61,786 nucleotides of DNA from Minisyncoccia bacterium (GCA_050008535.1 JBEKML010000003.1:1-61786), one strand, 5' to 3'; counted from the first letter of the stretch, positions 8,998 through 59,500 are shown. Made by a program: numbers and translations. Notes: generated from the sequence alone by a model not told the origin.

Positions 8998-9131
8998 CAC
9001 GCGGGCGCACATGGGCGCGATGCCAACGAGAAAGAAAAGAGGCGGTAATCTACGGCCCCGGCCAGCTTCAAGCTGCGTCCGGGGCCAAAAATATTTATCT
9101 TTATTTAATATCGCTGCGCTATGATGGCGGG

Positions 9132-10565
9132 ATGGCATTTTCCCTCCATCCGGCCGACACGGCATTTGGCATCACGCTTTTATTTCTCGCAGGCATTTTT
9201 ATCGCAGGTTTGGGGTGGCACTTTTTTGTTTTCTTCCTGGCCGTGCTTGCGGGCGGCGTAGCTTCGGTTCTTTTTAAGCGGGCGCTCTGGAAAGAGTGTG
9301 CGCTTTTTTGCTGCGCCATGCTCGCGGGCGCGCTCTACTACCATTTGTATTTCCACATTGAGGACGCGAAAACGAATTTGCCGTTCGGGCAGAAGGGCGT
9401 TTTCTCCGTGACCATTTCGGACGAGCCACAACCGTCGGAAAAATTTTTGATGCTCACGGCCGACGCCGAGCCGCCGTTTGCGGGTACGGTGGAGATCTTC
9501 GCGCCGCCGGAGAGCGATTTTCAATACGGCGAACTGATTCGCGTAGCCGGCACTGTAAACCCGCCGGATATGCCGGGCGGCAACGCGATCATTTTCACGC
9601 CCAAAATAACGGTGCTCGCCGAGCATCGCGGCTTTTGGCTGCGCGAGTGGATGATCAATATCAAACTCGCCATTTTGCAAAAGTTCAGGGAAGCGCTGCC
9701 GGAAGACCAGGCGGCGCTCTTGGGCGGGATCGCTTTCGGTTCAAAAGTGAGCTTCAAGCAGGAATTGAAAGATGCGATGGCGCTCTCGGGAACCACGCAC
9801 CTGGTCGCGGTTTCCGGTTATAACATCACGATCGTCATCGTGGCGGCGAGCGATCTTTTTAGAAGATTCTTCTCGCGCCGCACAACGTTCATTGCCGCCG
9901 TCATTGCACTCCTTCTTTTTATGTTCATGGTCGGCGCGCAGGCATCTGCGGTGCGCGCGGCGATCATGGGATTTCTGGCGCTTGTGGCGCGTGAGATAGG
10001 GGAGGAGTTCTCAATGCGGAACGCGATCGTCTTTACGGCTGCGTTTATGGCGTTGCTTGATCCGGGTATTCTTACCGGAAACCTAAGCTTCATCCTTTCC
10101 TTTTTGAGCTTGGCCGGCATCGTCTATCTTGGCCCGCCGCTCAAAAAACTTTTGCGTTACGGGAATGATGATGGCGGCCTTTTTGATTGGAAAGAGAGCG
10201 CCACGACCACCCTATCGGCGCAGCTCGCCGTGATGCCGGTGCTCATCAATTCCTTCGGCCGGTTTTCGTGCATGGCGATCCTGGCGAACATCTTTATCCT
10301 TGCGACCGTGCCGCTCACGATGTTCTTCGGGCTGCTCCTCGCGCTTTTCGGATTTGCGTCACATTACCTTGCGTTTTTCGCGGGGAAGCTCGTCGGCCTC
10401 ATGCTTGCCTACCAGCTCTTTATCATCCGGTTCTTTGCGGCGCTCGCAATTCCGCTGCCCCTGCCGCTAAATTCCGCCGCCGCGATCGCGTTCTATTATT
10501 TGATCCTTCTCGTTTTTATATTTTCGTATGGTTCGCACGGCCCCCGCGCCGGCATGCTTCCATGA
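9132..10565 (+). CDS. comEC: ComEC/Rec2 DNA-uptake channel (competence domain only)
   Basis: Track ORF trimmed to the ATG at 9132 (477 aa). It is polytopic and carries LLGGIAFGSK....L...M..SGTTHLVAVSGYNITIV. Confidence 0.8.
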   Translation: MAFSLHPADTAFGITLLFLAGIFIAGLGWHFFVFFLAVLAGGVASVLFKRALWKECALFCCAMLAGALYYHLYFHIEDAKTNLPFGQKGVFSVTISDEPQPSEKFLMLTADAEPPFAGTVEIFAPPESDFQYGELIRVAGTVNPPDMPGGNAIIFTPKITVLAEHRGFWLREWMINIKLAILQKFREALPEDQAALLGGIAFGSKVSFKQELKDAMALSGTTHLVAVSGYNITIVIVAASDLFRRFFSRRTTFIAAVIALLLFMFMVGAQASAVRAAIMGFLALVAREIGEEFSMRNAIVFTAAFMALLDPGILTGNLSFILSFLSLAGIVYLGPPLKKLLRYGNDDGGLFDWKESATTTLSAQLAVMPVLINSFGRFSCMAILANIFILATVPLTMFFGLLLALFGFASHYLAFFAGKLVGLMLAYQLFIIRFFAALAIPLPLPLNSAAAIAFYYLILLVFIFSYGSHGPRAGMLP

Positions 10566-26068: not shown

Positions 26069-27178
26069 ATGAAGCTGATAAGCAGCAAACAAGGCCACGG
26101 CCCGGATTACTTCTTCTTCGCCGTGGTCGTGATACTCGTGATCTTCGGGCTCGCGATGCTTGCTTCTGCGTCTTCCAATCTCGGCAAGACCAGTTTCAAT
26201 GACACGTATTATTATCTGAAGCACCAGATCATCTATGGCATCTCATTCGGCATCATAGGATTTGCCGCCGGCTATTTCTTTTATTATGGGAATTGGAAAA
26301 AGATCGCGTTTATCGCGCTGCTTATCAGTTTGGCTGCGTTGATTCTTGTCTTTACGCCGCTCGGGCTCCAGGCCCGGAACACGAGCCGCTGGCTTCGCCT
26401 CGGCCCCTTGAGCTTCCAGCCCGCCGAACTTATGAAACTGACCTTCCTTATTTATCTTGCTGCCTGGCTTTCAAACCCGAAATTCAAACGTGCGACGGAT
26501 TTCCAATCGGGACTTCTGCCCTTCCTTATCATTTCCGGCATCATTGCGGGGTTGCTTATCCTTCAGCCCGCGACGAGCACGGTCGTCATCCTTCTTTGCG
26601 CAGGACTGGCTGTCTATTTCATGAGCGGCGCACCGCTCAAATATCTCGCACTCACGCTTGTTGCCGCGATCGTTGTAATAGGGCTCGTCGTATACATTAC
26701 CCCGTACCGCCGTGCGCGGATATTGAGCTTCCTTGATCAATCTGCGGACACGCAGGGAGCGAACTATCAGCTCAACCAATCGCTCATCGCGATCGGATCG
26801 GGCGGCCTTACGGGCGTGGGATACGGCCAATCGGCAACCAAGACGAACTATCTTCCCACGCCGATAGACGATTCCATCTTTGCGGTCGTGGCGCAGGAAC
26901 TTGGCTTTGTGGGCGCAGGGACGCTCGTTGCGCTTTTTGCGATGTTCGCCACACGCCTTTTTTGGCTTGCGAGAAAAATGAACGACCGCTTCGGGCGCTT
27001 GCTTTTGATCGGTTTCGGGACGGTCATCGCGCTCCAGGCGTTCGTGAACATCGCGGCCACCTCCGGGCTCATTCCGCTCACGGGCGTGCCGCTGCCCTTC
27101 GTGAGCTACGGCGGCACGGCGCTTGCGGTCTTCCTCACAATGAGCGGCATCGCACTCAATGTTTCAAAATATACCTGA
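26069..27178 (+). CDS. ftsW: SEDS-family peptidoglycan polymerase FtsW/RodA
   Basis: 369 aa, about 10 TM. Contains QPAELMK, LPTPIDDSIFAV and SYGGTA. Confidence 0.85.
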   Translation: MKLISSKQGHGPDYFFFAVVVILVIFGLAMLASASSNLGKTSFNDTYYYLKHQIIYGISFGIIGFAAGYFFYYGNWKKIAFIALLISLAALILVFTPLGLQARNTSRWLRLGPLSFQPAELMKLTFLIYLAAWLSNPKFKRATDFQSGLLPFLIISGIIAGLLILQPATSTVVILLCAGLAVYFMSGAPLKYLALTLVAAIVVIGLVVYITPYRRARILSFLDQSADTQGANYQLNQSLIAIGSGGLTGVGYGQSATKTNYLPTPIDDSIFAVVAQELGFVGAGTLVALFAMFATRLFWLARKMNDRFGRLLLIGFGTVIALQAFVNIAATSGLIPLTGVPLPFVSYGGTALAVFLTMSGIALNVSKYT

Positions 27179-27185
27179 TAAGAGC

Positions 27186-28310
27186 ATGCAAGAACGTCCA
27201 TTCACTATTGTCTTTGCGGGTGGGGGGAGCGGGGGACACGTGTACCCCATACTTGCCGTTGCGGGTGTGCTCCGGAAACATTTTGAAGAACTGCGTGTTC
27301 CTTCCCGGATGGTCCGCATGGGGCCGAAGGATGGTTATGAAATACTCTTCCAAAACCGGGACATCGCGCTTTCGCCGATCGTCGCGGGCAAGGTGCGGCG
27401 GTACGCATCGCTTAAAAACTTTGTGGATGTTCCGAAGTTCTTCATCGGATTTTTCCAGGCGCTCGTAAAGCTGTATTTCATCATGCCCGACGTCATTTTC
27501 TCAAAGGGCGGGACGGGCGCGCTGCCCGTGGTCATCGCCGGCTGGCTCTATCGTATCCCCATCGCCATCCACGAATCGGATGCAAAGCCCGGCCTTACGA
27601 ATCTTTTTTCCGCACGATTTGCAAGGAGAGTATTCGTCGGTTTTGAGGAAGCCGCGCATTATTTCAATCCGCAAAAGACGGAAGTTACCGGTACGCCGGT
27701 CCGCGAAGAACTTCTCGCAGGAAGAACCACAAAGGAGCTTGCCAAAGAAACGCTTGGTTTCAGCGCATCAGCCCCGCTCACCCTCGTTCTCGGTGGTTCG
27801 CAGGGGTCGCAACGGATCAACGAATTCATCCTCAAGAATTTAGGCGCGATAGTAAAAGAAACGCAGCTTTTGCACCAGACCGGCATCGCAAACCTTGCCG
27901 AGGTGCAAAAACTTTCCCGCGCCGCGCTCATTGACGAATCGTTCAGGAATCGCTACCAGCCCATCGGTTTTTTTGAAAAGAATCTTGCCTTGGCGCTTAC
28001 CGCCGCCGACCTTGTGGTCATGCGGTCGGGAAGCATGCTTATGGAGATCGCCGCGTTTGGCCTTCCCGCCATCCTTATCCCGCTTTCCGAATCGGCGAAC
28101 GGCCACCAGGTGATCAACGCGTATGAATTCGCAAAGAGCGGCGCGGCGGTCGTGATAGAAGAAGCGAACCTCTTGCCGGGAATATTCATCAGCCAGTTGA
28201 AATCGATCCTCGGCAATCAGGACCTGTGCGCGAAAATGAGCGCGGCCTCAAGCAAATTCTTCATTCCCGACGCAGCGGAAAAGATCGCCGACGAGCTTCT
28301 CGCGCTGTAA
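27186..28310 (+). CDS. murG: UDP-N-acetylglucosamine--N-acetylmuramyl-(pentapeptide) pyrophosphoryl-undecaprenol N-acetylglucosamine transferase
   Basis: Track ORF trimmed to the ATG at 27186. Contains FAGGGSGGHVYP, GGSQGS and MRSGSMLMEIAAFGLPAILIP. Confidence 0.9.
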   Translation: MQERPFTIVFAGGGSGGHVYPILAVAGVLRKHFEELRVPSRMVRMGPKDGYEILFQNRDIALSPIVAGKVRRYASLKNFVDVPKFFIGFFQALVKLYFIMPDVIFSKGGTGALPVVIAGWLYRIPIAIHESDAKPGLTNLFSARFARRVFVGFEEAAHYFNPQKTEVTGTPVREELLAGRTTKELAKETLGFSASAPLTLVLGGSQGSQRINEFILKNLGAIVKETQLLHQTGIANLAEVQKLSRAALIDESFRNRYQPIGFFEKNLALALTAADLVVMRSGSMLMEIAAFGLPAILIPLSESANGHQVINAYEFAKSGAAVVIEEANLLPGIFISQLKSILGNQDLCAKMSAASSKFFIPDAAEKIADELLAL

Positions 28311-28333
28311 CGCATTTCCTCCATGGCAGCTAA

Positions 28334-28477
28334 GGAACAAGCAAAACCTCTCGTAAGGGACGGCGTCGTTTCCTCCGACAGGGAAACGCGCCTCTCCCTC
28401 GCCACGGCAAGCAACCTAAAGGTTGCTTCAAGCCGCCGTGGCTCCGGGACGCCCTTCCGAGAGGTTTTGCTTGTTCC
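28334..28477 (+). repeat. 144-nt structured palindromic element, copy 1 (candidate ncRNA or MITE-like element)
   Basis: A 20-bp terminal stem, GGAACAAGCAAAACCTCTCG / CGAGAGGTTTTGCTTGTTCC, encloses two internal hairpins. It equals the reverse complement of 32087-32230 with 7 mismatches (hand alignment). Confidence 0.8.
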
Positions 28478-28573
28478 TTATGCTAGGGGGACGGAGAGTT
28501 ACCTCTGCGTGCCACTTGATGCGAAATGATCTTCTGCCTAAATTATCCGCCTACCTCTTGGCGAGTTAAGACT

Positions 28574-28603
28574 TTGACTAGGGAATAAAATAATTGTTTA
28601 ATA
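28574..28603 (+). promoter_or_regulatory. candidate promoter of the OLD-xseAB operon
   Basis: TTGACT (28574-28579), about 17-18-nt spacer, TGtTTAATA. AAAAAGGAA precedes the ATG at 28649. Confidence 0.35.
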
Positions 28604-28648
28604 AAGGTGTGATTGTCCTAATGTCGTGAAAAAAGGAATAACTCCTAG

Positions 28649-30364
28649 ATGCGAATTACCGAACTTAGAATTAAAAACTTCAGGTCGATTAAAGATTCTG
28701 GCGAAATAGCCAAGATTACCAAAATCTTTGCACTTATTGGTCGTAACAATACTGGGAAATCTGCGTTCCTTAAAGCGATACAGGTACTCTTCCTTAAGAG
28801 ATCAATTGACGCTGACGACTTCCACAAGAGCAGCGCAGAAGATATTGAAATTACTGGCACCATAGAAACAGGTTTTGGCGAGGACAAAAAGGAAATCAAA
28901 CTTAAAGTTACTTGCTCTAAAGTTGACTTGAAAACAACCTACAATATCGATGGAAAAGAGCAAACAAAAGCAAACTATTCAAATGAACTGCCAGAATTAT
29001 TATCAATAAATGATATTAGAAATCCGGGTGAATCTACGACCGAGGGCCAAAAAGCAACACTACTCAAGCAGATCATGAAACTTAAGATGGCAAAGGCGGG
29101 CGAGAAAGTTCAAGAACTCACAGAGGCCATCACCAAACTCAAGACAGAAGAATCTAAAGACATTTCAGGGATAATCACTCTGAAATTTCAAGAAATCTTG
29201 AACGAAAATAATCTTTCTATCTCGATTTCGCCAACCGTAGAATTAGAAAAGAGCGTTACATACAGAACGACTGTTACGGATGAAAATATTCCGAACGCTA
29301 AAAACGTGGATATTCTAAACTCAGGAACCGGACTTCAGAGTATGTATATTTTGGCATTACTAGAGGTTTGGGCCGAGATGTCTGAGAAATCAGATAACGC
29401 AATACTATTAGTCGAAGAGCCTGAAGTTTATTTACACCCCGATTACCAGAGAAGAATGTTTGCTGCTTTGCGTAGAATAGCCGACAACAATCAAGTCATT
29501 TTTACAACTCATTCTCCAATTATGATCGCTGATATCTGGTTGACGCAGAGTGTCCGTCAGGTCAGACTCAACGCCGAAGGAGAAACACAAATCGAAGTTA
29601 TAAAAATAGAAACCGTCATCGACGAGCTCGGCATAAGATACGAAGACGTTCTAAATCCAAGTCTAGTTATTTTCGTAGAAGGTAAGGATGACGTGCAATT
29701 TTATAAACATTTAGGAATCGAGAATGAAAAGCTCGTCATTATTTCTGCGGATGGATTCAGGGCTATTCATTATTTTGCTTTTATCAAGATTATTTCGAGC
29801 GAGCATGTAAATAACAATTTCTTCCTAATTGTTGATAGCGACGGCAGGTCCAAAGAAGAACGCATAAAACAAATAAAAGAAGATATCATTGGACAATTTA
29901 AAACACCACCGGCCAATTTAGAGGAAAGAATAGCAGACAATATTTTTGTGTTAACAGAATATTCTATAGAGTCATACTTCTTAAATGAAACAATTCTCCA
30001 AAAAGCATTTCCTAAAATAAACGCAGCCGACATAAAACAATTTCTCGAAGAGTATAAGGGAAAATATGAAGAGAAGCTCAAGGAACACAAGGCGGGCAGG
30101 ATCACCTTGGTTGAATTTCTAAAATACCTTAAACCGAAGCTTTGCTTCGAGGCGTTTATTGATCCGAGATTTGAAGCAGCCTACCGAGACTTTTGGGCTA
30201 AGCAGCCAAATTTCATTAAGGTTAGAGATATTATCTCTGAACAATGCGTTCGAATGGAAAAAGAGGGTAGAAGTTGGTTAACCTATATCTTAGCCAATTC
30301 CAAACTAGAGGAAATCAAAGAGCTATCTGACCTCAAGAAAATGATTTTTGGAAAACTGCGCTAA
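28649..30364 (+). CDS. OLD-family nuclease (N-terminal ABC-type ATPase + C-terminal Toprim / DUF4435-like)
   Basis: 571 aa. Walker A GRNNTGKSAF, Walker B ILLVEEPEVYLHP, FTTHSP, then VIFVEGKDDVQFY and FLIVDSDG (Toprim E and DxD). Confidence 0.8.
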   Translation: MRITELRIKNFRSIKDSGEIAKITKIFALIGRNNTGKSAFLKAIQVLFLKRSIDADDFHKSSAEDIEITGTIETGFGEDKKEIKLKVTCSKVDLKTTYNIDGKEQTKANYSNELPELLSINDIRNPGESTTEGQKATLLKQIMKLKMAKAGEKVQELTEAITKLKTEESKDISGIITLKFQEILNENNLSISISPTVELEKSVTYRTTVTDENIPNAKNVDILNSGTGLQSMYILALLEVWAEMSEKSDNAILLVEEPEVYLHPDYQRRMFAALRRIADNNQVIFTTHSPIMIADIWLTQSVRQVRLNAEGETQIEVIKIETVIDELGIRYEDVLNPSLVIFVEGKDDVQFYKHLGIENEKLVIISADGFRAIHYFAFIKIISSEHVNNNFFLIVDSDGRSKEERIKQIKEDIIGQFKTPPANLEERIADNIFVLTEYSIESYFLNETILQKAFPKINAADIKQFLEEYKGKYEEKLKEHKAGRITLVEFLKYLKPKLCFEAFIDPRFEAAYRDFWAKQPNFIKVRDIISEQCVRMEKEGRSWLTYILANSKLEEIKELSDLKKMIFGKLR

Positions 30365-30379
30365 CCCATCCTCAAGTCT

Positions 30380-31696
30380 TTGTTCAATAAAGTAACCAAA
30401 GAATCAACATACGACAAAGGTATGAAAGGAGAAGCGGAATCTAATTCAAGTGCGAAAGATGTCTTAACTGTAAGCTCATATCTTGACGCCCTAAACGTTC
30501 ATATTCAGGGACTTCGGGCAAAAATCGTTGGCGAAATTTCGGATTTACAGACCTACCCTCGCTACCTATTCTTCTCCCTCAGGGACAAGAAGGGTGACAG
30601 TATACTGAAATGCTTCATGTATAACAAAGCTTACCAATTGAGCGGCTTAAAATTAGAGAATGGCCTTGAAGTGATTGCCCATGGTTATCCCTGGATCTAC
30701 AAGTCACGGGGAAACATGACCTTCCAGACTGAGCTTTTGGAATTGGTCGGAGAGGGAGCACTAAAGAAAGCCTATGATGAGCTAAAAGCCAAACTTGAGA
30801 CAGAGGGCCTGTTCGCCCCACAGCGCAAGCGGATTATTCCAGAGTATCCACAGAAAATAGGAATCGTTACTTCTAGAAATGGCGCTGTTATTGACGACTT
30901 TCTTAGTAACATCGGTAATTTTGGCTATCAGACGAAACTCATCGATTCCAAAGTTGAAGGGCAAATTGCGGTAAAGGATTTACTTGCTGCGGTAAAAGCA
31001 TTTCGCAAAGAAAATATCGATGTTCTCGTCATTATGCGCGGCGGTGGATCGCTGGAATCTTTTATGGCTTTCAATAACGAAATCTTGGTTAGGGAAATTG
31101 CCACTTTTCCGGTACCAGTAATCGCAGGCATAGGTCACGACAGGGATGTGTGTCTCGTAGCACTCGCAGCGGATGCTATGGTATCGACGGCAACTGCGGT
31201 AGCTGAGCTTTTGAACCGATCCTGGAACCAAGCTTTATCTAAAGTTCTTCTAGCTGAGAGCAAGATGGTCTCAGGGTATGAAGGTGTTCTTTCTGAGACA
31301 AAAATGGAGATCGGCAATGCTTCGGTGACCATTAAGGAAAAATTCGGGGCAATCTTTGAGAAATTTCGGGACGCAGAGGAATATTTTAAGACCGTTGTAG
31401 GCAAGATCGATAGTAGACTCTCCCAGCTAAGGAATGAGGTGAATAGATTTTCAACCTCCATGATCAAACTTTTCGAATATAAGTTTATCAATCACTTAAA
31501 AAATGGTATTCTTTCTAAAGAAAGGGAGTTGATTCTCAACGACCCTCGCAGACAGCTCAAACTAGGCTATAGTATTGCGATGAGTGGCGGCAGAATAACA
31601 AAGAGCATTAAAGGCTTAAAAGTAGGAGATCCCCTTATGGTAAAGTTGCAAGATGGAGATGTCGGCTCCACAATAGACAGTATAAAAAATGGCTAA
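30380..31696 (+). CDS. xseA: exodeoxyribonuclease VII large subunit
   Basis: 438 aa (TTG at 30380, alternative ATG at 30422). OB-fold region with YLFFSLRDK; IGIVTSRNGAVIDD, IMRGGGSLESF, AGIGHDRD. Confidence 0.85.
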   Translation: MFNKVTKESTYDKGMKGEAESNSSAKDVLTVSSYLDALNVHIQGLRAKIVGEISDLQTYPRYLFFSLRDKKGDSILKCFMYNKAYQLSGLKLENGLEVIAHGYPWIYKSRGNMTFQTELLELVGEGALKKAYDELKAKLETEGLFAPQRKRIIPEYPQKIGIVTSRNGAVIDDFLSNIGNFGYQTKLIDSKVEGQIAVKDLLAAVKAFRKENIDVLVIMRGGGSLESFMAFNNEILVREIATFPVPVIAGIGHDRDVCLVALAADAMVSTATAVAELLNRSWNQALSKVLLAESKMVSGYEGVLSETKMEIGNASVTIKEKFGAIFEKFRDAEEYFKTVVGKIDSRLSQLRNEVNRFSTSMIKLFEYKFINHLKNGILSKERELILNDPRRQLKLGYSIAMSGGRITKSIKGLKVGDPLMVKLQDGDVGSTIDSIKNG

Positions 31697-31967
31697 ACCC
31701 ACACCATCAAAAGTAAACCTAAACGAGTCGCTCAAACAGCTCGCTAAAATCGTAGTGTGGTTTGAAGAGCAGGAGGAGGTCGACGTAGAGAAAGGTCTAG
31801 AATACGTGAAAGAGGGTGTTGAACTTATTAAAACCTGTAAAGCCCGACTTTCGCAGGTTGAAAACGAATTCAAGGAAATAAAAAGAGATTTAGAAGACGA
31901 TGGTGAAGGGGGTGAAGGACCCCAAGAGACGATACCAGAAGGGAACGGAGAAGAACTACCTTTTTAA
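31689..31967 (+). CDS. xseB: exodeoxyribonuclease VII small subunit
   Basis: 92 aa with an 8-nt overlap onto xseA. Helical, with LNESLKQLAKIV..FE......VEKGLEYVKEG.EL...C; acidic tail. Confidence 0.75.
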   Translation: MAKPTPSKVNLNESLKQLAKIVVWFEEQEEVDVEKGLEYVKEGVELIKTCKARLSQVENEFKEIKRDLEDDGEGGEGPQETIPEGNGEELPF

Positions 31968-32059
31968 TTTAAAATGTAAAAGAGGTTTCGGGAGGCATTG
32001 ATCGGCAAGATAGAGTAACGAAAGGATATGACATTTTAATGTTGGAAAAGGGCTGAAAC

Positions 32060-32076
32060 AGTTCGAACATCGTCCA
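32060..32076 (+). repeat. boundary motif copy C (AGTTCGAACATCGTCCA)
   Basis: Identical 17-mer to 2828-2844. It lies at the GC shift between the island and element copy 2. Confidence 0.8.
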
Positions 32077-32086
32077 AGTCTGCCAG

Positions 32087-32230
32087 GGAGCAAGCATAAC
32101 CTCTCGTAAGGGCGTCCCGGAGCCACGGCGGCTTGAAGCAACCTTTAGGTTGCTTGCCGTGGCGAGGGAGAGGCGCGTTTCCCTGTTGGAGGAAACGACG
32201 CCGTCCCTTACAAGGGGTTTTGCTTGCTCC
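32087..32230 (-). repeat. 144-nt structured palindromic element, copy 2 (inverted)
   Basis: The reverse complement matches 28334-28477 at 137/144. The central ~105 nt differ at one position, which is a loop position. Confidence 0.8.
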
Positions 32231-32280
32231 GTGGCCGCTGGTTAGAATTCTAACGAAAAATGAGCTAAAATAGGGGATAT

Positions 32281-33756
32281 ATGGCGAAACCTATGGAAAA
32301 TCCGCCAAAGGTTCGTGTCCGCATGGCTCCAAGCCCGACGGGGCCGCTCCATGTCGGCGGTGCCCGGACGGCGCTCTTTAACTGGCTCTTTGCCCGCCAG
32401 AAGGGCGGTGCGTTCATTCTACGCATAGAAGACACGGACAAGGAGCGGTCGGAGAAGAAATACGAAGAGGAACTGCTTGCCGGGCTTGCGTGGCTGGGCT
32501 TGGACTGGGACGAGGGACCGCTCGGCAACGGCGGGCGCCTTATGGAGGACGAAGAGGGGCCGTATGGCCCGTATCGCCAAAGCCGGCGGACGGAAATTTA
32601 TAAAAAATACCTTCAGGAATTGATTACTAAAGGCGAGGCGTATTACTGTTATTGCACCAAAGAAGAGCTTGAGGCGCAGCGCGATGCGCTTCTTGCGCAG
32701 GGGCTTCCGCCGAAATACAACGGGCGCTGCCGGAATCTGAAAACGCCGGAGGCAGGGAGAAGGCCGGAGGTCATCCGCTTCAAAGTTCCCGAAACAAAGG
32801 TGGAATTTGAAGACATGGTCCGCGGAAAGGTTTCGTTTGACACCTCGCTTTTCGGCGACATTATTATTGCGAAAGACCTTGAAAATCCGCTCTACAATTT
32901 CGCCGTCGTCGTGGACGACGAGCTGATGAAGATCAGCCATGTGATCCGCGGCGAAGAGCATCTTTCCAATACGCCGAAACAGATCCTTATGCAGCGCGCG
33001 CTTGGATTCCAGGAGCCCGTCTATGCGCACATCCCGCTCATTTTGAATCCCGACCGCAGCAAGATGTCAAAGCGTTTTTCCGACACGGCACTTCTGCAAT
33101 TCAAAGAAAAAGGATACCTGCCGGAGGCGCTTATGAATTTTTTGGCGTTTCTCGGCTGGCACCCAAAGGACGACAGCGAAGTGCTTTCCAAAAAAGAACT
33201 GATCAAGGCGTTTGATCTCACGCGCGTGCAGCAAGCGGGCGCGATCTTCAATCAGGAAAAACTGGATTGGCTGAACCGCGAACACTTGAAGAATACGGAC
33301 GATAAAAAGATCGTGGAACTGCTTGGTCCTTTTCTTCAAAATAAACGTCTTGCCGCCCCCGAGGAATTCCTGAAAAAGGTCATAGCGGTGGAACGCGGCC
33401 GCGCGAGCACGCTGAATGACTTTATAGAGCTTGGGCATTTCTTTTTTGCATTGCCGGAATACGAGCCCTCGCTGCTTGTTTGGAAGGAAAGCACCGCGCC
33501 TGAGGCCCGGGCGGCGCTTGAGGCGGCGCTCGCGGACCTTTCGAAAATTGATCCGATGAATTTTGAGCGGGGGGTCTTATCCGACGCCGTGGCGTCCATT
33601 GTGGGGGACAAAAAGAGGGGAGTGGTGCTCTGGCCGTTGCGTGTGGCCCTTTCTGGGCTCGGGGCCTCTCCGGACCCAGTCGAGATCATGGAAGTGCTCG
33701 GCAAAGAAGAGTCGTTAAAGCGAATAGGCGGCGCGATCGCGAAGCTGAAGAAATAA
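32281..33756 (+). CDS. gltX: glutamate--tRNA ligase
   Basis: 491 aa. Contains PSPTGPLHVGGARTALFN, LRIEDTD and KMSKR. Confidence 0.95.
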   Translation: MAKPMENPPKVRVRMAPSPTGPLHVGGARTALFNWLFARQKGGAFILRIEDTDKERSEKKYEEELLAGLAWLGLDWDEGPLGNGGRLMEDEEGPYGPYRQSRRTEIYKKYLQELITKGEAYYCYCTKEELEAQRDALLAQGLPPKYNGRCRNLKTPEAGRRPEVIRFKVPETKVEFEDMVRGKVSFDTSLFGDIIIAKDLENPLYNFAVVVDDELMKISHVIRGEEHLSNTPKQILMQRALGFQEPVYAHIPLILNPDRSKMSKRFSDTALLQFKEKGYLPEALMNFLAFLGWHPKDDSEVLSKKELIKAFDLTRVQQAGAIFNQEKLDWLNREHLKNTDDKKIVELLGPFLQNKRLAAPEEFLKKVIAVERGRASTLNDFIELGHFFFALPEYEPSLLVWKESTAPEARAALEAALADLSKIDPMNFERGVLSDAVASIVGDKKRGVVLWPLRVALSGLGASPDPVEIMEVLGKEESLKRIGGAIAKLKK

Positions 33757-56525: not shown

Positions 56526-59500
56526 CTAAGTTGAGCTTGCGTTGTCGGCGGTGGATGTCGGCGTGAGATCTGGGGCTGGAGCGGTTGATGTCGGGGTTGA
56601 GGTTGCGGTGTCGGGCGTCGTTGAGGTCGCGGCGGGGGTAGTAGATGTCGGCGTGAGGTCTGGGGCCGGGACAGTCGAAGTGGGGGTTGAAGTGGCATTG
56701 TTTGCTACGGTGACCGAGACGCTTGCGGTGGAAGTGGCACCGGTGCTATCCGTCACGAGCGCCGCGACGGTATGGCTGCCATCCTCAATGGTCGCGGTAT
56801 TCCACCCATACGAGTATTCAGGGTTGTTCGTCCAAAGACCTTGGCCGAGGTCGTTGCCGTCGATCTGGTAATCAACGCTTGAAACGGTCGTTGACGGTGT
56901 AAGCGTGATATTTACATCAAACTCGGTCGTACCCGAAACGGTGCTGCCATCGGTAGGTGCGGCGAGAGAGATGCCGAGCGCGTCGCCGGTTGTGATGTTC
57001 GCCGGCAGCGTGGGACTCGCTGATCCGCCGCCCGACCCGCCGGATCCGCCCGAGCCGCCAGACGAGCCGTTTGTACCCGGGTTGTTCATTTGCGCGATAA
57101 GCCGGGCAAGCTGGTCCTGGTTCACACACGTCGTGCCGACGCAGAGTTCGTCCGTTGTGATCTTGCTTGCGATAAGCTGTTGCACCCGCGCGATGCCGTT
57201 CATGACGAAGAGGCCGAGCTTCTGGAGCGCGTACTTAATATAGAGGGTGAACTGGTCAAGAATGCTGCCGCCCGTCCCGCCTGCGGTAGAGGTCGCCGCG
57301 GCAGTCGCCCAGCTGGACGATGCAATATCTCCCTCCGTGGTCAATCCGCCCATTGACCAGTTGGGATTTATGAACGTTAGGACTGTCCCCGTAGCGCTCG
57401 GCTCGGTTGATGTAAAGCTTTCCATCGCAATGCCAAGGACCCTTCCCGGTTGAGTCGCTTTCATACCGTATCCCGGAACGTCCGATGAGGTGATATAATC
57501 GCCTATTGTAATCGGGCCGTTTTCGCCGGTAACCTTCACGGGAACCCTTCCGGCGAGCGCGATGATATTTACACCGTTATCGCTTTCTCCCCCGCCCACG
57601 AACGATGCCGTCACCGTGATAGCGCCAGAAAGGTCAGGGTCATAAGGCACTTGGGACTTTTGAAATAGTTCGGTTCCCGACGTGGCAACGGAAAGAAGGT
57701 CTCCCGCCTCGTAATCACTGCTGCTCCCAACGACATTGATGAACTCGCCGAAGTCGTTGGCAGGGCTTATTACTTTACCTTTGGCAACGATCGAATTGCC
57801 GGTTGTCGCATTGTTAGTCGACCCGACCCACATGACCGTGCCGGTCGTCACCGTTGTCGAGAATGTGCACGCAATACTACTGCTCGTCCCCGAAGCAAGC
57901 GGACAGACCGTAAGTGTCGTCGAACCGTTGAAGGGCGCGGTATAGCTCGCATAAAGAAAATTGGTATTATAAAGAAGATTGTTGCCGCCCATCACGACTT
58001 GAGCCGGTATGGTAACCGTACTACTTACCGTATCAACGTTGATCAAAGTAGCAGCAGCAGTCAGGTTACTTGAAAATATAGAATTACTGATGTTGAATGC
58101 GCTATTGGAAAGTCCTGCGGCGCCCGTGCCCAAAGTAGAGTTCTGCACATCAAATGGTGCATAAAGGAGAGCGCTATACAGGGCTTCCGCTATGAGGGCG
58201 TGTCCTTGGTCATTAGTATGAAGCGCATCAGTTGAAAAATTACTCGGGTTTTTTCCGATTGGAGTATCTTCGTCAACATACATGACCGAGCTCGGAAATT
58301 CGTTCACCACTTCCCGTATTGCGCCATTTATGACGGCTATGTCAGTGTCATTGACATTCGGAATTGTCGCAAGACCAGTGTAGTTCGGCTCATGGTTGAC
58401 ATTCAGAACAAGCGTAGGAGTGGGAGTCGTGGCCTCAATCTGGTAATAGTCAAAAGCAGTCGTGCCCGATACGTTCGTAATGAAATCCACTATCTTGTGT
58501 TGAGCAGTGACTCCGGTCAGACAACCCGAAGTGCCCGTGGCATCCCCTGGAGGAATGTTAAACCGCCGGACAACGCTAACAACAGCGAGCGTTGATGTCC
58601 CATCCACGCTTAACATACTTCTTGTATCCATTATGGTCGTGGTTGCACCGTCCACGCTGAACGAATGGACGGCCCCTGAACTGTCCGACCTTGCGATGAT
58701 GCCCATGTCCACCGTCCCTCCTGTATAGTTAAAATCTAAAGGAAGACAAACTTGAACCGAGGCGGTACTTGTGGTTTGAGCATATCCTCTCCCAGAGTTG
58801 GTGGTGGTTGTTGCGATAATTGCCCAGTTACCCGTTGGATAAGAAACCGAACTGCTGGCGGTTGTTGCAGTTGAACTTGTTTCCTCAAAAACCGCCGATG
58901 CCTGGTAGCGGGCAATGATGGTTCGCATCCCTTCCTTGAAATCTTCAAGACGGCACGTGGAGGTGGCATAGAAACTGCATCCAACCGTATTGTTCATTGT
59001 TCCCGAAGTAAAGCTAAGGTTTAACTGGTTAACATCGTTAATGCCATAATTGAGCACGCCCAGGAAATTCGGACCGTTGTAAGGAGCCGCCGGATGTGTT
59101 ATCCCCATCGGAAACATCCGATTTCTTGGCGGGATTATTTGCTGAAGAACAGCACCATAACCGCCGTCTACGGTACCCACTTTATAACCGGTATATGCCC
59201 GGGCAGAGACGATCCCGTTGTTTATCACTTGCGCGTGAAGCATGGTGCCCAAACGATTCATATAATTATTGAAAACGTTTGATACGCCACCAGTGCCAAC
59301 AAAAACCGACCCCATATTAGAATGCCCGCTGCCCACTATAAATCCGATATGATTCACGATATCGCTTCCGCATAATATTGTACCGCTGGCATCGGTCACG
59401 AGAGAATTACAAGAAGTAAGCTGGGAAGATCTTATTAAAGAAGCATCGAAATTGATCGTACCATCATAATAATTTACAGGAGTAGTATAATTACTAACCA

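Follow-up and report, generated by a model that had tools for sequence, protein, structure and literature searches.

Between murG and gltX, in the 61,786-nt stretch of a Minisyncoccia bacterium analysed here (hereafter the window), two copies of an element of about 150 nt lie in inverted orientation on either side of a low-GC cassette of three genes: a gene for an OLD-family nuclease, xseA and xseB. This layout raises the question of what the paired elements are. A preliminary description, made from the sequence of the window, had set three possibilities side by side: ends of a composite mobile element, repeats of an invertible segment, and two copies of a non-coding RNA gene facing the cassette. 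We found that each element is a Y-shaped hairpin, and that it belongs to a lineage-restricted, low-copy family with a long basal stem and a conserved three-way-junction core. Our tentative reading, to which we give a probability of about 0.4, is that the elements are palindromic intergenic repeats that mark the boundaries of transcription units and duplicate as whole units. They would act as orientation-tolerant insulators or stabilisers of transcripts and not as enzymatic transposon ends.

A family of Y-shaped hairpins

A repeat search of the window gave two inverted arms of 152 nt each (28326-28477 and 32087-32238), 93% complementary and separated by 3609 nt. The hand alignment in the preliminary description, 137 of 144 positions with one difference in the central ~105 nt, was reproduced by BLAST over 28334-28477 / 32087-32230 (95.1% identity). 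In an ungapped comparison the core matches at 91/92 positions and the outer 5′ and 3′ stems at 23/26 each. Beyond the arms, 70-nt flanks of the two copies match at only 20-23 of 70 positions in either orientation, which is the chance level, and the repeat is therefore a sharply bounded, discrete unit. A likeness of the left flanks in the direct-repeat output proved to be the palindromic stem itself; outside the stem the flanks match by chance only. No further copy was found in the window, including in a covariance-model scan with filters off.

Each arm is a hairpin in its own right, with an outer stem of 29-31 bp, a three-way junction and two hairpins, the second of which carries a 6-nt bulge (CAAGCC) and a tetraloop. 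The predicted folds of the arms have energies of -91 to -99 kcal/mol on either strand, with z scores of -8.9 to -12.8. Hairpin limits set by an automated procedure ran beyond the stems and were left out of account. The preliminary description had not recognised the element as any of several RNA classes. Rfam 15, which covers signal recognition particle (SRP) RNA, 6S RNA, tmRNA, RNase P, riboswitches and ribozymes, contained no family for it at gathering or permissive thresholds. The Rfam match with the lowest E-value was a plant microRNA model, which scored 19 bits where 140 are required. Identities as SRP, 6S or 5S RNA were also rejected on inspection, as copy number and motifs did not fit and no Rfam match was obtained. 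A protein-coding element was rejected because open reading frames (ORFs) crossing different copies use different frames. Nor does the element resemble the attC sites of integrons: RYYYAAC/GTTRRRY core motifs could not be read at the stem bases, the copies are inverted and not direct, and no integrase was found within ~10 kb of flanking sequence. In most copies no T-run, as expected of a Rho-independent terminator, follows the full stem.

The preliminary description had proposed a search for the element in other genomes. Exact patterns of the conserved core were run against 185,579 species genomes and the matches were confirmed by the covariance model. Copies were found in only four genomes: SPRUCE 501 (five copies), OY970175.1 (four; c4 below), OY970382.1 (two; c5 below) and MFD01476.bin.2.169 (one). 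The genomes c4 and c5 are complete chromosomes of 0.9 Mb each, and the record names Minisyncoccia for one of the four genomes, SPRUCE 501. A further, diverged copy lies on L284, a contig from a related metagenome source. The collections of viral contigs, phages and plasmids that were scanned contained no copy. Initial scans with looser patterns, of genomes, of viral sequences and, once, of metagenomes, were set aside, their matches being mostly chance ones in GC-rich genomes; the matches listed for the metagenome scan did not extend to the other contigs of the window species.

Pairing within the family is strongly supported by covariation. In a MAFFT alignment of six copies, 21 of 48 pairs had changed in a compensatory way. 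Among 14 copies, pairing extends to 97% of cells, and 28 of the 48 pairs have changed on both sides. The covariation score of the 14 copies was 0.469, compared with 0.06-0.12 in slid controls, and this value was attained in none of 500 shuffles. One U·G pair is constant in 13/13 copies. Apart from this invariant pair, the non-canonical pairs are few and show no strand bias (8 variable G·U, 12 A·C), and G·U makes up only ~1% of pairs. Most pairs of copies are 79-90% identical in the core, at 1-5 copies per ~0.9-Mb genome. The interior is conserved and the outer stems vary between subfamilies. Hairpin 2 ranges from 5 bp in L284 to ~30 bp in L273, hairpin 1 is missing in L279, and half of the outer stem has been deleted in L001 and L269. 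The element is a structured family absent from Rfam.

Copies of the family lie at the edges of transcription units. They cover the fusA stop codon at an orthologous position in c4 and SPRUCE 501, and the stop codon of the release-factor gene prf, facing a convergent NUDIX gene, in c4 and c5. One copy lies 5 nt past the stop of a macB permease gene, one between the divergent dnaE and tRNA-Thr genes, upstream of the tRNA-Thr promoter, one 13 nt past tRNA-Glu, and one 12 nt past a tRNA-like (CAU) gene, in one genome ~25 nt before tRNA-Met. Antisense copies were found between a STAS-domain gene and its next gene, between two genes on L284, and immediately upstream of gltX in c4 and in the window (copy 2). 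Spacings are short: 5-20 nt past macB and murG, 12-13 nt past tRNA genes, and 0-8 nt before the gltX -35 box. Six loci lie sense to local transcription and four antisense, and dnaE/tRNA-Thr is ambiguous. Solo copies occupy at least nine other loci, and no GC shift was seen at those examined. Measured against the refuting condition set in the preliminary description, the supposed tie of the element to cargo with shifted GC therefore fails.

Several further observations were made at these loci. In c4 (L273:7300-7500) the products of the convergent prf and NUDIX genes share the ending PQERS*, encoded by the two stem arms. The tRNA-like sequence next to the element (L280:5399-5469 and, on the minus strand, L281:7344-7414) is 71 nt long and conserved, with a CAU anticodon loop and a promoter-like site before it; it was not called by ARAGORN and scored no more than 33 bits on the tRNA-Sec model. 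In a SPRUCE 501-like genome two diverged copies (L219:1057-1182 and L219:7598-7723), inverted and facing outwards, bracket a 6.4-kb operon without a GC shift that encodes PEBP, an ECF sigma factor, HlyD, and the MacB ATPase and permease.

Comparison of stems showed that copies duplicate as complete hairpins. The two window copies have both stems and the core in common, and are recent whole-unit copies, ~5% diverged. Two c4 copies at distant loci, one before gltX and the other at fusA, share the stem TAGCGCATGAGCGTTG... (stem 0.87, core 0.90). The window stems are related to those of copies at non-orthologous loci in SPRUCE 501 (L068) and c5 (L275). Conversely, window copy 2 and the c4 copy upstream of gltX occupy the same site and belong to different subfamilies with different stems, and in c5 this site holds an unrelated hairpin of 198 nt (L283:8940-9137; -98 kcal/mol, z -10). 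Since one site can contain different subfamilies or an unrelated hairpin, hairpins arrive and are exchanged irrespective of the cargo. For the same reasons we rejected the idea, raised by the presence of a c4 copy at this position, that copy 2 is the ancestral one.

The murG-gltX slot and its cargo

The block between the two elements has a GC content of 0.404, compared with 0.539 in the remainder of the window, in agreement with the low-GC island of the preliminary description. At third codon positions the values are 0.39-0.45 for the OLD gene, xseA and xseB and 0.64-0.66 for murG and gltX. Contigs carrying MurG homologues 70-78% identical to that of the window were compared. The eight genomes, including that of the window, show seven different states. 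The slot is empty in L268 and L285 (MurG 73% and 71%), where murG and gltX are 35 nt apart. In c4 (L267; MurG 72%) it contains a gene for a Cys-rich protein of 583 aa followed by the three-way-junction element, and in c5 (L283; 72%) a Cys-rich gene of 595 aa followed by the unrelated 198-nt hairpin. L284 (73%) carries a reversed mscL and L286 (70%) a CYTH-domain gene. The closest relative, L266 (78%), has a 221-aa gene with its own candidate promoter. In the window the order is element, OLD, xseA, xseB, element.

Where the slot is empty, murG ends in a TAG that overlaps the -35 box of the candidate gltX promoter (TTAGAA, 18 nt, TAAAAT). Six of the seven relatives have versions of both boxes (-35 TTAGAA, CTAGAA or TTGGGA; -10 TAAAAT or TAAGAT), c5 being without a clear -35. 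In the window this promoter is retained at 32242-32271, with 6 nt between it and the stem of copy 2 on its left. Its final murG codons and stop are unlike those of the relatives in which the stop overlaps the -35 box, and the new stop lies at 28308. The retained promoter and the new murG stop together place the inserted block at approximately 28308-32238. A reading of the sequence to the right of copy 2 as a remnant of the murG stop was rejected, since this sequence is the gltX -35 box, a conserved one that in the empty-site genomes overlaps the stop. From this alignment, and from the relatives in which murG abuts gltX, we conclude that the 3.9-kb block is an insertion, as the preliminary description had proposed. 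For a target-site duplication there are just two candidates, the imperfect direct repeat GCGCTG / GCCGCTG at the junctions of the block and, at copy 1, a palindromic TA. Because stop codon and promoter overlap, there is a single insertion point that spares both essential genes, and one such permissive point can explain why the slot was used again and again, with no need of a site-specific enzyme.

The arrangement of hairpins differs with the cargo. In L266 the 221-aa gene, which has a strong promoter-like site (TTGACA...TATATAAT), is flanked by hairpins at 9127-9198 and 9965-10058 that have a 52-nt core in common, inverted and 87% identical. These show no sequence kinship to the window element: the architecture is the same and the element is different. 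The two cargoes with a candidate promoter of their own, those of the window and L266, have a hairpin on either side. Where the cargo follows 5-30 nt behind the murG stop (c4, c5 and L286) there is no left hairpin, and this cargo probably has no promoter of its own. The Cys-rich proteins (L267:9151-10902 and L283:7165-8952) contain many CxxC pairs and gave no Pfam, NCBIfam or PADLOC match. In c4 a LAGLIDADG homing-endonuclease gene, which has no counterpart in the window, lies downstream of gltX between two M23 peptidase genes (L267:14474-14998).

The gene content given in the preliminary description, OLD, xseA and xseB, was borne out by Pfam, PADLOC and TIGRFAM. The first protein matches AAA_15 (9.7e-33), PADLOC Old (1.4e-40) and the class 1 OLD structure PDB 6p74 (1e-13). 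It gave no match to the Pfam OLD-Toprim model; the Toprim motifs FVEGKDD and VDSDG could be read in the sequence, and GajA profiles reach residue 483. We therefore assign it, by motif and profile, as an OLD-family nuclease with a predicted N-terminal ABC ATPase and a C-terminal Toprim domain containing the catalytic Glu and DxD. No UvrD-like GajB helicase, as in Gabija (class 2 OLD), is adjacent; the downstream genes are xseA and xseB, which are predicted to encode exonuclease VII. Homologues of the OLD protein (45-71% identical) have as neighbours a BsaWI-type restriction-modification pair, a type I restriction-modification system with a serine recombinase, or parAB. For XseA, the best homologue other than self matches has 54% identity, compared with 78% for MurG, and its gene context is a housekeeping one; neither of the sister genomes, c4 and c5, appears among the top XseA matches. 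By composition and nearest homologues, the cassette is composite and of foreign origin. The notion that OLD-xseAB is a conserved module was rejected, as the linkage is missing in the three contexts of OLD homologues and the one context of an XseA homologue examined. A second site with the element-cargo-element block was not found. Table 1 lists the features of the region.

Table 1. Features of the murG-gltX region, in window coordinates
Feature	Position	Strand	Evidence and remarks
murG	27159-28310	+	Pfam Glyco_transf_28 and Glyco_tran_28_C; stop TAA 28308-28310; 3′ end compared with seven relatives
New murG stop and 18-nt spacer, left edge of inserted block	28308-28325	+	No counterpart in empty-site relatives
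Element copy 1	28326-28480	sense +	29-bp outer stem, 28331-28359 with 28452-28480; three-way junction, two hairpins
Copy 1, covariance-model core	28343-28468		143.3 bits on +, 20.7 bits on -
Candidate cassette promoter	28574-28602	+	TTGACT, 17 nt, TTTAAT, read by eye; consensus scan chose overlapping 28566-28594
OLD-family ATPase-Toprim nuclease (predicted), 571 aa	28649-30364	+	Pfam AAA_15, AAA_21; PADLOC Old; PDB 6p74
xseA, exonuclease VII large subunit (predicted)	30380-31696	+	TIGR00237 271.8 bits (cut-off 180)
xseB, exonuclease VII small subunit (predicted)	31689-31967	+	PF02609 32.6 bits (cut-off 24); TIGR01280 33.4 bits, slightly below cut-off 35
Element copy 2	32082-32238	sense -	Stem arms 32082-32112 and 32205-32235
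Copy 2, covariance-model core	32096-32221		141.2 bits on -, 15.5 bits on +
gltX promoter candidate	32242-32271	+	TTAGAA, 18 nt, TAAAAT; from eight-genome alignment
gltX	32281-33756	+	Pfam tRNA-synt_1c, Anticodon_2

Elsewhere in the window, a 16S rRNA end occupies positions 1-756 and is not followed by a 23S rRNA inside the window. Downstream of it a second low-GC stretch (1500-2700; 0.40-0.43) holds an 84-nt tRNA at 2233-2316. Two neighbouring G/T-rich direct repeats of 82 nt, 74% identical and spaced by 90 nt, lie at 56530-56701.

Possible roles of the paired hairpins

In the reading that we favour, the family would be one of repeats settled at transcription-unit boundaries, after or over stop codons, beside tRNA genes and directly upstream of promoters, and spreading rarely through duplication of the complete hairpin. 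A foreign cassette, with its own promoter followed by OLD, xseA and xseB, would have entered where the murG stop overlapped the gltX -35 box. Its entry would have created two new boundaries, one between the murG end and the cassette promoter and the other between the cassette end and the gltX promoter, and one copy of the repeat would have come to lie at each. As very stable RNA hairpins in either orientation, the repeats may then insulate or punctuate transcripts by blocking read-through or decay from the 3′ end. That orientation should be immaterial is suggested by the mixture of sense and antisense loci, by the equal folding of both strands, and by the fact that G·U pairs do not exceed A·C. 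The reading also agrees with the relatives, in which a left hairpin accompanies only cargo that has a candidate promoter, and with the different hairpins behind the shared cargo gene of c4 and c5. The comparisons above show the insertion and foreign origin of the cassette, the structure, covariation and distribution of the family, and the duplication of whole units; the insulating role, the mechanism of duplication and the order of events are inferred.

Several findings weigh against this reading. The formation of inverted pairs around cargo in the same slot by two hairpin families, in the window and in L266, is unexpected by chance, and on the right a copy ends exactly at the edge of the insertion, as expected of a transposon end. 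The hairpins lack U-tracts and are therefore not canonical intrinsic terminators. A simple insulator has no need of a conserved junction sequence, conserved loops or a conserved CAAGCC bulge, and the partial deletions in L001, L269 and L279 fit decaying selfish DNA as well as they fit function. Finally, the reading requires a conjectural mechanism that copies the hairpin unit and nothing more.

The first of these points bears on a composite mobile cassette, of the kind known as mobile insertion cassettes or as pairs of miniature inverted-repeat transposable elements (MITEs). The hairpin units would then be the terminal inverted repeats of a non-autonomous element, and an enzyme encoded elsewhere would have recognised the folds at the ends and moved the 3.9-kb block to the end of murG. 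Elements at both edges of the block, copy 2 ending just short of the retained -35 box, speak for this model. So do the non-homologous flanks, which mark a discrete repeat unit, the whole-unit copies at unlinked loci, and the insertion polymorphism with empty sites in L268 and L285. A different gene in a different inverted hairpin pair occupies the same slot in L266, and the candidate imperfect repeat at the two junctions would fit as well. Several observations point the other way. Consistent with the preliminary description, which saw no transposase, integrase or invertase in or beside the segment, no recombinase or transposase domain was found in the flanking genes of same-species contigs, over ~10 kb on the upstream side of the OLD gene in L002 and ~10 kb on its downstream side in L003-L005. 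The terminal stems are not conserved between subfamilies and the interior is, which is the reverse of a MITE. There are 1-5 copies per genome and not many near-identical ones, and orthologous positions are kept across genomes whose MurG proteins are each ~72% identical to that of the window. The left copy is set 18 nt inward of the edge of the insertion, the cargo common to c4 and c5 is accompanied by different hairpins, the block was found nowhere else, and the reuse of the slot is explicable by the stop/-35 overlap as the one permissive point. The composite element suggested in the preliminary description draws what support it has from the flush right copy, the matching architecture in L266, the conserved junction and the duplication of exact units. 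The divergent stems, the failure to find a recombinase in the genes examined and the differing c4 and c5 hairpins count against it. We consider a role as transposon ends, and with it this model, unlikely.

The elements might instead be genes for small structured RNAs that act in trans or are excised. The sense strand would be co-transcribed with mRNAs or tRNAs, and RNase III would cut the basal stem to free a Y-shaped core that binds a protein or a ligand. Strong covariation in all helices, conservation of unpaired nucleotides in the junction, bulge and loops, and the invariant U·G pair are features of such an RNA. So is the variability in length of hairpin 2 and of the basal stem, which is seen in functional RNAs. 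Four independent loci lie beside tRNA genes on the same strand, and in L281 and L280 a promoter-like site is followed by the tRNA-like gene and, after 12 nt, by the element. On the other hand, at four of eleven loci the element runs against the transcription around it, and G·U pairs are no more frequent than A·C, at a share that is unusual for RNA. Several copies are without half of the basal stem or without hairpin 1, the promoter at the tRNA-Thr locus lies downstream of the element, and no promoter or terminator is common to the copies. The mixed orientation and the lack of a G·U excess likewise disfavour the RNA gene facing the cargo that had been suggested earlier, and we consider this model about as unlikely as the composite cassette.

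A further model, which we regard as improbable, is that gene cassettes are moved or captured through folded Y-shaped hairpin ends recognised by shape and not by sequence, forming a new, structure-guided class of mobile cassettes. Recognition of shape would account for unrelated hairpin pairs around different cargo in the same slot and for exact copying of the unit, with the stem bases as its limits; the solo hairpins at gene ends and tRNA genes would be former or potential docking sites.

Inversion of the segment is very improbable. Recombination between the 152-nt repeats, whether homologous or site-specific, would flip OLD-xseAB and so switch its expression; inverted repeats 93% identical and 3.6 kb apart are a substrate for RecA, and two short contigs (L006 and L007) begin inside copy 1, at window positions 28394-28398. 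However, six same-species contigs from six samples all show one orientation, no invertase is encoded in the block or in the flanking genes examined, and the promoter lies inside the segment, so that flipping would not switch it. The breaks in L006 and L007 are at the centre of the palindrome and are probably an assembly artefact, not biological heterogeneity. Least probable of all is the remnant of a hairpin-ended replicon, linear or single-stranded, that was integrated by end joining and whose terminal repeats would be akin to parvoviral ones or to the fold-back telomeres of linear plasmids: the size of ~145-155 nt, the T/Y shape, the inverted layout and the small 3.6-kb interior match, but the block has no gene for Rep/HUH, a terminal protein or a telomere resolvase, its cargo is made up of a defence-type nuclease and repair genes, solo copies occupy conserved places in chromosomes, and no copy was found in the viral, phage and plasmid collections.

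Relation to known repeats and significance

REP/BIME and ERIC of enterobacteria, Correia of Neisseria and RPE of Rickettsia are families of intergenic palindromic repeats that are thought to stabilise or terminate transcripts. The present family resembles them in its size of 100-160 nt, its self-complementarity, its place in transcribed intergenic regions and gene 3′ ends in either orientation, and its occasional extension of ORFs (here PQERS*). It differs in having 1-5 copies in few related genomes and a conserved, covarying junction with a variable outer stem; unlike in REP-type systems, no RAYT or transposase partner was identified for the element. With mobile insertion cassettes and MITE-flanked composites it shares passenger genes without a transposase between inverted repeats, and empty sites in relatives. 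In the present case, however, the ends are whole hairpins that are not conserved across the family, and there is no clear target-site duplication, cognate enzyme or second site. The pdif (Xer) modules of Acinetobacter plasmids are likewise bracketed by inverted imperfect palindromes, with different modules at equivalent positions. A pdif site measures 28 bp and has defined arms for XerC and XerD, whereas the present element is 150 nt long and chromosomal, and no dif-like motif was recognised in it. The terminal repeats of adeno-associated virus and other parvoviruses are similar in shape only (a T/Y hairpin of ~145 nt with a long stem and two small arms, inverted at the ends of ~4 kb); here there is no Rep/HUH gene and no viral context, and copies occur alone in chromosomes. 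The nuclease itself resembles class 1 OLD proteins (phage P2 Old; Thermus scotoductus OLD, PDB 6p74) in its ABC ATPase and Toprim domains with Glu and DxD, and in having homologues among restriction-modification genes, and differs in the position of its gene, 15 nt ahead of xseA-xseB.

In general terms, intergenic palindromes and defence cassettes of foreign origin are known already; the family is new to Rfam, and the architecture of paired hairpins in a constrained slot is unusual. Bacteria of the candidate phyla radiation have tiny genomes in which few mobile elements can be recognised and hardly any non-coding elements have been characterised. For these organisms a conserved, covarying family of 100-160 nt, absent from Rfam, is now defined and a usable covariance model supplied, and a recurrent insertion slot has been identified where a stop codon and a promoter overlap. 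The linkage of OLD with xseAB is a candidate defence or repair module. If the hairpins are cassette ends, they would point to an unknown mechanism of mobilisation; if they are insulators, as we tentatively favour, they would show how streamlined genomes domesticate foreign cassettes between essential genes.

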